Shown here piece after piece: positions 56,454 to 58,187 of a DNA stretch of 64,000 nucleotides (the stretch's first letter is position 1; every line of letters starts with the position of its first letter). The position numbers and the translations under genes were made by a program. The notes under the pieces are model-generated. The model was given only the letters and a program-made list of their open reading frames with translations. It searched no databases and was not told the origin of the DNA. This DNA is from Chlamydiia bacterium (GTDB lineage Bacteria > Chlamydiota > Chlamydiia > Chlamydiales > Rhabdochlamydiaceae): the NCBI GenBank assembly GCA_963804085.1, contig CAWDOQ010000016.1:1-64000 (forward strand). Direction: 5' to 3'.

Positions 56454-57407
56454 ATGAGTTCAGTTAAAGAAGTCTACACGAAGAAAAAATGTGAAGAAGT
56501 TACGGCATTTGTTTCTGCACAAGAGGTCACTAAAGAGCCTGCGATTACAGAGAAGTATTATGATCTCGTGACCGATTTTTTCGAATTCGGATGGGGAAAA
56601 TCTTTTCATTTTGCGCCTCAATTTCCTGGCGAAAAGATGAAAGATGCGATTTTGCGCCATGAGTATAAACTGATCGATGCTCTTAAGCTCAAACCCAAGA
56701 TGAGGGTGCTAGATGTAGGCTGCGGAATTGCGGGTCCTATGAAAAATATCGCAGAAAAGAGTGGAGCAGACTTCGTTGGACTCAACATCAATGCCTACCA
56801 GATTAAAAAATGCAAAGAGTACATCAAAGAGAGCGGATTGGAAAAAACATGCACCTTCCATGAAGGCAACTTCATGCACGTGGATATGCCCGATGCATCC
56901 TTTGACGCGATCTATTCGATTGAAGCCACACCTCATGCACCGGATAAAACCCTCTGCTTTAAAGAGATGTATCGCCTGCTGAAGCCAGGCGCATGCTATG
57001 CGGGGTTTGAGTATGCTCTTCTTCCCAACTACGATGCGAACAATCCTGAGCATGTGAAGATCATGGATGGTTTAGAGCACGGAGGAGGTTTACAAAAAAC
57101 ACTGCCTTGGGAAGAGCTAAAACAGTGCTTTATCAATGCGGGTTTTAAAGTGATCACCATGCAAGATGAGTGTAAAGAAGGCATGAGCTGGACACTTCCT
57201 TTAGAGAAAGGTTTGAGAAGTTCTAAGCCGGGACGAGCGATCACCAACGTCTTCGTCAGACTCTTAGAGTTTTTAAAAATCGCTCCCGAAGGGTCTACTA
57301 GCGTGAGCAGCTTTTTAAATAGCGGCGCTGATGCTTTCGTGGAAGCTGGAAAGCGCAAGCTCTTTACAACTTGCGTCCTCTTTGTGGTCCAAAAGCCGCA
57401 TAAATAA
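56454..57407 (+). CDS. sterol C-24 methyltransferase (ERG6/SMT family)
   Basis: YYDLVTDFFEFGWGKSFHFA (region I), LDVGCGIAGP, GLNINAYQ, YSIEATPHAP (region III), C-terminal LEFLKIAP.G and LFT; AAGGAGG RBS. Confidence 0.88.
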   Translation: MSSVKEVYTKKKCEEVTAFVSAQEVTKEPAITEKYYDLVTDFFEFGWGKSFHFAPQFPGEKMKDAILRHEYKLIDALKLKPKMRVLDVGCGIAGPMKNIAEKSGADFVGLNINAYQIKKCKEYIKESGLEKTCTFHEGNFMHVDMPDASFDAIYSIEATPHAPDKTLCFKEMYRLLKPGACYAGFEYALLPNYDANNPEHVKIMDGLEHGGGLQKTLPWEELKQCFINAGFKVITMQDECKEGMSWTLPLEKGLRSSKPGRAITNVFVRLLEFLKIAPEGSTSVSSFLNSGADAFVEAGKRKLFTTCVLFVVQKPHK

Positions 57408-57413
57408 AAAAGG

Positions 57414-58187
57414 ATGGAAGAGGATCTTTATTTTTCGTTTTGCAAGTGGACTAAAGGGAGTTCACCTCAAGGCGACGGGCTTTTAGTTGCCTCTGATATC
57501 TCACAAGAGTGGCTCCTCCCCTGGTGGTGGGGCCACTATATCCGCCATAATACCTACCCAGTCACTTTTGTTGATCTTGGCATGTCACAAGAGATGAAAG
57601 AGTGGTGCAAGGAGCGTGGGAATTTTGTCCGACTTGCTGCCCCCGATCTCTTTGTTAAAGAAAAGGAGGAGATAAAAGATCCTCTTATCCTTGAGTGGGA
57701 GAACAGCTATGGACGCAAATTCTGGCCTCGGAGACAAGCCTGGTTTAAAAAGCCGATGGCCTGCTTAAAATCCCCCTATTTGCGCACCGTCTGGTGCGAC
57801 CTCGATTGTGAAATCCGCGCTCCCTTATCTGAGCTCTTCTCATTTTGCGAAAATAGCGCAGGGATCTCACTAGCACGCGAGAAGCATGACCCTCTTTCTC
57901 AAAAATCGGGATTTAATTCCGGAGTGGTCGTTTATAAACATGGTCTTGCTCTTATTGAGGAGTGGGCAAAACTTGCGGTAAGCTCTAATGAGCTATTTCC
58001 GGGAGATCAAGATCTCCTCTCTCTTCTGATCTTGGAACAAAAACTCCCAATCGTAGAGCTTCCCTACATCTACAATTGGAGCCGTCTTAGCGAGGAGAAC
58101 GCCGATGCCAAAATCTTCCATTGGCATGGCGATCATGGAAAAGCAGTGATCGAGTTTCAGATCACGCGAGCGAATCAACCATTCTAA
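57414..58187 (+). CDS. glycosyltransferase, GT-A fold (GT8-like)
   Basis: WFKKP, WCDLDCEI (DxD), FNSGVV, GDQDLL, IFHWHG. Confidence 0.75.
   Translation: MEEDLYFSFCKWTKGSSPQGDGLLVASDISQEWLLPWWWGHYIRHNTYPVTFVDLGMSQEMKEWCKERGNFVRLAAPDLFVKEKEEIKDPLILEWENSYGRKFWPRRQAWFKKPMACLKSPYLRTVWCDLDCEIRAPLSELFSFCENSAGISLAREKHDPLSQKSGFNSGVVVYKHGLALIEEWAKLAVSSNELFPGDQDLLSLLILEQKLPIVELPYIYNWSRLSEENADAKIFHWHGDHGKAVIEFQITRANQPF

Follow-up and report, generated by a model that had tools for sequence, protein, structure and literature searches.

The window analysed here comprises the first 64,000 nucleotides (C16:1-64000) of contig CAWDOQ010000016.1 from a Chlamydiia genome (assembly GCA_963804085.1; 2.13 Mb in 24 contigs, estimated to be 91.3% complete), and the genes under study are two adjacent plus-strand open reading frames at positions 56454-58187. 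The first (56454..57407) is preceded by a GGAGG ribosome-binding site of Shine-Dalgarno type (56444..56448) and encodes a sterol C-24 methyltransferase (SMT) of 317 residues, assigned to chlamydial subclade A by its domains, homologues, mapped residues and position in a tree. The second (57414..58187), referred to below as ORF2, encodes a 257-residue GT8-like glycosyltransferase of the glycogenin/LgtC type with a GT-A fold. Six nucleotides (AAAAGG, 57408..57413) lie between the TAA stop codon of the SMT and the ATG of ORF2. An earlier interpretation made from the letters alone, hereafter the sequence-only reading, had described this layout and proposed that the bacterium remodels host sterols, possibly followed by their glycosylation; coordinates and spacer are exactly as it gave them. 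A terminator scan finds no terminator-like plus-strand site from 55790 to 58000, hence none between the two genes, the promoter and terminator scans yielding no more sites than shuffled sequence. Co-transcription of SMT and ORF2 in this genome is plausible from their arrangement. The G+C content of the SMT (0.444), of ORF2 (0.474) and of the genome (0.479) offers no sign of a recent transfer of either gene.

The first gene encodes a genuine SMT, as the sequence-only reading had claimed. Pfam searches return the C-terminal domain Sterol_MT_C (PF08498) over residues 254-315 with an E-value of 7.5e-20 (71.2 bits, the cut-off being 21.7) and Methyltransf_11 over residues 86-180 (1.2e-18, 68 bits), together with class I methyltransferase domains. 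Sterol-binding Region I, FFEFGWGKSFHF (residues 42-53), retains the GWGxxFHF pattern intact as G46 W47 G48 K S F51 H52 F53, and Region II, the S-adenosylmethionine-binding motif DVGCGIAGP (87-95), retains DxGxGxxGP as D87 V G89 C G91 I A G94 P95. The substituted motifs noticed beforehand are likewise present, with FFEFGWG at 42-48, IEATPHAP at 156-163 and FEY at 185-187, and so is the short N-terminus: the YYDLVT motif begins at residue 35, but at 48-54 in a pair of plant SMT1-like proteins and at 41-49 in a myxobacterial pair. There is no SMT model in NCBIfam, whose matches all fall far under their cut-offs; a sequence search of the PDB returns no SMT structure, its top match (3bus, 7.5e-22) being a 273-residue chain named only 'Methyltransferase'.

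The enzyme shares with eukaryotic SMT1/ERG6 the class I methyltransferase plus Sterol_MT_C architecture and the conservation of Regions I to IV, and it is 41-46% identical to plant SMT1-like proteins. It differs from them by an N-terminus 13-19 residues shorter than that of the plant proteins and 38 residues shorter than that of yeast, the latter by numbering offset, and by phenylalanine for Y81, glycine for the usual aspartate or asparagine at 249, proline for the cysteine of IEATCHAP and FEY for YEW. A protein search with the SMT recovers 2277 relatives among 3283 candidates. The first 40 of these (45-99% identity, 221-354 residues) are taken as chlamydial because three are named Chlamydiae or Chlamydiales (P0006, P0011, P0038) and because of the genome searches described below; plant SMT1-like and myxobacterial proteins follow at 40-50% identity.

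A tree of 87 rows was computed by a quick IQ-TREE search under LG+G4. It contains the window SMT, 37 of the relatives P0002-P0040, three plant proteins, 42 named bacterial SMTs and, as an outgroup, four chlamydial methyltransferases of about 355 residues that lack Sterol_MT_C; omitted were P0001 (99% identical to the window SMT), the fragments P0032 and P0033, the aberrant 500-residue P0041, two open reading frames of record L056 and every second of 83 bacterial open reading frames. The 83 SMT rows split from the four non-sterol methyltransferases with a Shimodaira-Hasegawa-like approximate likelihood ratio (SH-aLRT) support of 100, and the window SMT falls on the sterol side of this split. 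The chlamydial SMTs form one clade of 38 rows (SH-aLRT 100), divided into subclade A with 30 rows including the window (99) and subclade B with 8 rows (98). This clade stands apart from the eukaryotic sequences, for which only three plant proteins stood, a sample that does not settle how chlamydial and eukaryotic SMTs are related.

Full-length SMT orthologues are rare in the phylum. Eighteen of 401 chlamydial genomes give a match at E<=1e-30, and six of the 401 hold a full-length orthologue of at least 47% identity: the genome of the window (G000), G031 with two copies, G113, G276, G158 and G307. The matches in the other 12 genomes (L008-L019, L021) are a generic class I methyltransferase of about 355-385 residues, 28-35% identical to the SMT, and Sterol_MT_C is absent from the four that were scanned. 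Outside the phylum bacterial SMTs are common, with 554 candidate loci in species-representative genomes. A search of metagenome contigs adds two loci only, and the sample on which synteny can be judged stays small, at eight other SMT loci.

By its sequence the window SMT is of a kind that has already been characterised biochemically, to which it would add one more natural example. The in vitro products of an SMT from a freshwater Chlamydiae metagenome-assembled genome (MAG) are 24-methyl, 24-ethyl and two 24-isopropyl sterols, and Brown et al. (2023, PMC10070321) proposed that this enzyme uses host sterols, the MAG being without other sterol genes as far as the consulted portions of that paper go. 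The sequence-only reading had stated that SMTs of chlamydial MAGs can methylate repeatedly, and the statement is borne out by what we consulted of PMC10070321 and of a preprint by Brown and Welander (2025, bioRxiv 10.64898/2025.12.19.695621). According to the latter, glycine at position 249 (yeast numbering) is necessary for C30 products, and phenylalanine at 81 and/or 83 enhances the formation of 24-isopropyl sterols. The engineered change Y81F (Y43F) raised the C30 share on desmosterol from 27% to 73% and that on 24-methylenecholesterol from 50% to 91%, and F83Y decreased C30 products (bioRxiv 10.64898/2025.12.19.695621).

When yeast positions are mapped to the window with the offset of 38 that Brown and Welander 2025 also used, F43, F45 and G211 of the window SMT correspond to yeast F81, F83 and G249, so that the three residues are combined naturally in this protein. 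Across the window SMT and P0001-P0040 (41 rows), the genotypes at 81/83/249 are F-F-G in 13, F-Y-G in 10 and Y-F-G in 6, with ten others. The window adds a chlamydial SMT with natural Phe81/Phe83/Gly249, a combination that, once engineered into a tested enzyme, turned C30 sterols into its main product. Of the 25 residues reported to be conserved in functional SMTs, 24 are kept, the exception being Pro359, which is replaced by Thr306. This natural genotype together with the unusual Thr306 makes the window SMT a reasonable candidate for assay.

The nearest comparison is with a tandem SMT pair (P0005, P0008) present in G031 and in the records L056 and L139, the window SMT being 72% identical to both members. 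One copy of the pair carries Y43/F45/G211 and the other F43/Y45, and their Region I residues and numbering fit the enzymes printed in the preprint as '1 of 2' and '2 of 2' under the name 'Chlamydiae sp., drinking water MAG' (PMC10070321; bioRxiv 10.64898/2025.12.19.695621). The drinking water enzymes resemble the window SMT in their chlamydial subclade, their short N-terminus and Gly249, and their MAG resembles the genome studied here in that the other sterol biosynthesis genes are reported absent. The differences are that the window SMT is a single copy rather than one of a tandem pair; that it has both F81 and F83, whereas the tested chlamydial enzymes have either Y81/F83 (propylating) or F81 (methylating only, the matching P0005 having tyrosine at 83); and that it has proline in IEATPHAP, valine standing there in the putative propylating copy, and threonine in place of Pro359.

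The genome offers little with which a sterol could be made. It contains a single Sterol_MT_C match, that of the SMT itself, and profile searches of its 91.3%-complete sequence give no match to SQHop_cyclase_C (PF13243), SE (PF08491), p450, FA_hydroxylase or ERG4_ERG24. Controls gave matches for all of these families except ERG4_ERG24, those for SQHop_cyclase_C and SE in 2 of 14 genomes each; for the ERG4_ERG24 profile the phylum sample served as validation, with 132 of 400 genomes above its cut-off and the genome of the window still without a match. The oxidosqualene cyclase and sterol reductases that the sequence-only reading had named as the genes to look for are thus unmatched here, and de novo sterol synthesis by this bacterium is not supported by its gene content. 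Because no cyclase, epoxidase, P450, sterol desaturase or ERG4/24 reductase is found, the substrate is most likely a host sterol, and the action on host sterols that had been claimed for this enzyme is the best inference from the same searches.

Lone sterol-tailoring enzymes have parallels among intracellular bacteria, which include ERG4/ERG24-type sterol reductases in Chlamydiae and a delta-24 reductase in Coxiella (cited in PMC9666466, which we consulted in part). Like the window SMT, these are single eukaryote-type sterol-tailoring enzymes in obligate intracellular bacteria that make no sterols; they differ in reaction and in fold, and the ERG4_ERG24 type is the one for which the genome studied here has no match. 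Eight genomes of the phylum hold a higher-scoring class of full-length ERG4_ERG24 proteins (E about 1e-119 to 1e-136), and G113 and G307, two of the other five SMT genomes, are among them; loci L131-L134 are examples of ERG4_ERG24 genes. The full-length protein of G113 and G307 could be a side-chain reductase that works with the SMT there.

The second gene resists assignment by sequence families and yields to fold. At E<=0.01 ORF2 has no match in Pfam or NCBIfam, the PF01501 (Glyco_transf_8) profile included. Its AlphaFold model has a predicted local distance difference test score (pLDDT) of 95.5 and a predicted template modelling score (pTM) of 0.92, and the top Foldseek matches of the model are LARGE1, glycogenin, XXYLT1, UGGT and LgtC (E 3e-11 to 3e-9). 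VIA-align superposes it on human glycogenin-1 with Z 19.6 and a root-mean-square deviation of 3.2 A over 207 residues at 20% identity, and on LgtC with Z 18.3. A profile of the ORF2 family matches glycogenin-1 at E 2e-4 and aligns the DxD, NSGV and GDQ motifs, placing WCDLDCE over the FMDADTL of glycogenin. In ORF2 these motifs read DLDCE (129-133), NSGV (168-171) and GDQD (197-200), followed by HWHG (236-239); D129, D131, G170, D198 and H236 do not vary among 50 homologues, and the N-terminal, tryptophan-rich motif EWLLPWWW (residues 32-39) is likewise invariant in the family. The GT-A gene announced by the sequence-only reading therefore stands by its fold, while it finds no counterpart among the Pfam and NCBIfam families. 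From these results, ORF2 is probably a retaining, metal-dependent glycosyltransferase, and we call it GT8-like rather than a member of GT8 because the PF01501 profile fails.

With glycogenin and LgtC (CAZy GT8) ORF2 has in common the GT-A fold over about 207-212 residues, the DxD/NSGV/GDQ motifs (those of glycogenin) and a length of about 250 residues. It is set apart from them by an identity of 14-21%, by the lack of a Glyco_transf_8 match, by the EWLLPWWW motif and by a family that is mostly chlamydial in the named records. A word-indexed search finds 110 homologues, all hypothetical, carrying five Chlamydiota-group labels and one Verrucomicrobiota label where they are named, and the number of cluster representatives matched by a profile built from 50 sequences is 469 at E<=1e-30 and 2430 at E<=1e-3. 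In one look-alike Atlas cluster, 13% of the members carry PF01501. Some members of the family are long, with 2-7 matched stretches and up to 1406 residues (P0362-P0365, P0371 and others), others form tandem arrays of up to three copies per locus (L025, L035, L041), and the clusters that a protein language model ranks as look-alikes include phage and giant-virus proteins. A limited literature search on chlamydial GT8- or glycogenin-type glycosyltransferases returned nothing relevant to the ORF2 family, and we do not claim the family to be undescribed. It is a large, chlamydial, GT8-like family without a Pfam model and merits a study of its own.

We consider it probable that the SMT is functional, acts on host sterols and methylates them more than once, and that ORF2 is a GT8-type enzyme that is not dedicated to it. 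The SMT would use S-adenosylmethionine to alkylate sterols acquired from a eukaryotic host, probably a soil protist, on their delta-24 side chain, and would most likely do so with more than one methyl group, the products being 24-methyl, 24-ethyl and possibly 24-isopropyl sterols. ORF2 would probably be co-transcribed with the SMT, yet without being its dedicated partner, and its acceptor would probably be a glycan, an envelope polymer or a protein. A number of observations weigh against this account. F81/F83/G249 is not sufficient, since three tested bacterial SMTs with F81 and/or F83 and G249 carried out no more than one or two additions, and one had no activity (bioRxiv 10.64898/2025.12.19.695621, as far as consulted). 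The tandem pair is linked to the assayed enzymes by its residue pattern, and the identity of P0008 with the assayed protein is presumptive. A completeness of 91% leaves room for a missing cyclase cluster. The remaining objections concern the substitution of Pro359, a squalene-synthase-like gene elsewhere in the genome and the close spacing of the two genes, and each of these leads to an alternative explanation.

That the SMT is inactive or has changed its function through the loss of Pro359 seems unlikely to us. The alignment column for this position (121 homologues) holds proline in 113, alanine in 4, threonine in 3 and a gap in 1; P359 is kept in every SMT tested by Brown and Welander, and seven of their 11 inactive homologues depart from the 25 conserved residues in at least one place (bioRxiv 10.64898/2025.12.19.695621, consulted portions). 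The threonine is common to the window SMT and its 99% identical relative. Against a loss of activity stand the other 24 conserved residues, all intact, and the four other members of the subclade with alanine in this column, which suggest that the position is relaxed in this clade. A sister strain bears on the matter as well. A 13,814-nt contig from the soil metagenome run X2 represents a relative about 94% identical to the window, with the same MFS-SMT-ORF2 order; it covers 53000-55436 with 155 other letters and 56417-58210 with 105 other letters in 1794 (about 6%). At this nucleotide divergence the SMT differs at 3 of 317 residues, which argues for strong constraint and continued selection on it, and ORF2, at 28 of 257, seems to be held less tightly. 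Scarcely probable, in our estimate, is that the SMT C-methylates endogenous squalene in the manner of the triterpene methyltransferases of Botryococcus braunii, which are SMT-like or SMT-derived. That Botryococcus has triterpene methyltransferases is documented (cited in PMC3533583, consulted in part). The genome does encode one squalene-synthase-like protein of 341 residues (C19:225772-226797; L135:1465-2490) with an SQS_PSY match of 3.6e-38 and, by eye, both Asp-rich motifs; its best family is TIGR01559 (1.4e-35, under the cut-off), it matches human squalene synthase (1ezf) near full length at 3e-20, and its relatives, where named, are mostly Myxococcota at 42-57% identity. The presence of this gene makes an endogenous isoprenoid substrate conceivable; it is rare, occurring in 8 of 400 genomes of the phylum, and no cyclase or epoxidase that would consume squalene is found in the genome. 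Opposed to this are its absence from all five other SMT genomes, its location on a different contig from the SMT, the fully intact sterol-binding Region I of the SMT, and the activity on desmosterol and 24-methylenecholesterol reported, in what we consulted, for the enzymes that match the 72% identical relatives.

The close spacing of the genes leads to the proposal already made in the sequence-only reading, a two-step pathway in which a host sterol, once alkylated by the SMT, is glycosylated by the GT8-like ORF2 to give alkylated steryl glycosides. The 6-nt spacer, the common strand, the lack of a terminator-like site between the genes and the adjacency kept in the sister strain fit a real operon, and in G113 a different, GT25-like glycosyltransferase (PF01755, 1.1e-11; L004:2503-3435, minus strand) lies directly upstream of the SMT, a second and unrelated adjacency of this kind. 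The distribution of the two families speaks otherwise. Members of the ORF2 family are present in 146 of 400 chlamydial genomes, often as tandem arrays and with copy numbers of up to six or more, against 6 of 401 for the SMT orthologues; the genome of the window itself has a second copy, 40% identical, on contig C2; and the closest homologues of ORF2 (46-57% identity) belong to genomes without an SMT orthologue. Among the other SMT genomes, G158 and G307 show no ORF2 homologue, the listed copies of G031 lie 127 kb away from its SMTs and those of G113 and G276 are on other contigs, and tblastn with ORF2 finds no homologue at the other SMT loci within 1.5-kb flanks (L003-L007, L020), 3-kb flanks (L139, L140) or 6-kb flanks (L056). 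The neighbours of the SMT differ from genome to genome (Dus with SPW/VKOR; GT25-like with MFS; GNAT with RNase T; M23 peptidase; NUDIX), and 29 other loci of the ORF2 family have varied neighbours and no SMT, with Glyphos_transf in 4 of the 29 and inverse-autotransporter and DEAD-helicase genes in one syntenic group. Elsewhere SMT and ORF2 are adjacent only in the sister strain of about 94% identity, in which ORF2 is also the faster-evolving of the two. The listed structural matches of the ORF2 model are all GT-A enzymes of GT8/GT24 type, with no known sterol glycosyltransferase among them. To our knowledge, the known sterol glycosyltransferases are GT-B enzymes (the UGT80 proteins of GT1; the cholesterol glucosyltransferase of Helicobacter in GT4). 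The proposed functional pairing and sterol glycosylation are thus not supported, given the unequal spread of the two families, the eight other SMT loci without ORF2 and its SMT-free nearest homologues; we regard the two-step pathway as very unlikely, and a pairing confined to this lineage, with ORF2 a mere neighbour of the SMT, as the probable state of affairs. A lineage-specific functional link could nevertheless exist. In its boldest form, which is a long shot, this lineage would have recruited the SMT and ORF2 into one operon that turns host sterols into side-chain-alkylated steryl glycosides; if true, the operon would hold the first GT-A (GT8-type) sterol glycosyltransferase and would give an intracellular bacterium a novel means of relabelling the membrane lipids of its host. 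ORF2 should not be annotated as a gene of a sterol pathway.

The preferred account, a host-sterol SMT that methylates more than once, bears on the fossil record of sterols. Side-chain alkylated steranes, above all 24-isopropylcholestane, serve as fossils of early animals, and their precursors are within reach of a chlamydial enzyme, as Brown et al. showed. If SMTs with F81/F83/G249 are active, such sterols may come more widely from symbionts of protists than from sponges and their symbionts.

Immediately upstream of the SMT lies a repeat element. It was detected by blastn against the genome itself at 55485..56378 and is a GC-rich, non-coding sequence about 890 bp long that has terminal inverted repeats of 78 nt (96% identical), contains nested inverted sub-repeats and is situated between the MFS transporter gene and the promoter region of the SMT, 75 nt upstream of the SMT start. 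In the sister strain the X2 contig joins 55436 to 56417, skipping 980 nt and carrying 87 other letters in between, and the repeat is absent. Because of this absence the element looks like a mobile insertion resembling a miniature inverted-repeat transposable element. Only three elements with these ends occur in the genome (on C16, at C19:229258-229979 and on C15 near 4515), next to many partial copies of the core. The distance between the C19 copy and the squalene-synthase-like gene is 2.5 kb, perhaps by coincidence.

Downstream of ORF2, and starting 65 nt past it, an open reading frame on the plus strand (58253..58555) encodes a predicted membrane protein of 100 residues with only a weak, sub-threshold match to DUF3185; it is possibly co-transcribed. 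The next open reading frame (58552..58902, plus strand) overlaps it by 4 nt and encodes a Lys/Cys-rich protein of 116 residues with a hydrophobic N-terminus. A homologue of the latter, 47% identical, is found in another chlamydial genome (L056, 11119-11472), 4.2 kb 3' of the tandem SMT pair, a faint trace of a common neighbourhood.

The rest of the window provides the setting of the two genes. A bacterial ribosomal RNA operon on the minus strand occupies its start, and a string of glucose dehydrogenase-like, glucokinase and MFS sugar-transporter genes runs along the minus strand 5' of the SMT (52010-55459). Sequencing runs that contain parts of the stretch carry soil metagenome labels and come from three studies (shares 0.10-0.26), a lead only as to a soil habitat of the bacterium. 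Just 3' of the SMT region, a Fic-domain protein (59729-60568, plus strand; 1.1e-13) and a eukaryote-type protein tyrosine phosphatase (60558-61361, minus strand; Y_phosphatase, 1.5e-45) are encoded, both of them likely host-directed effectors.

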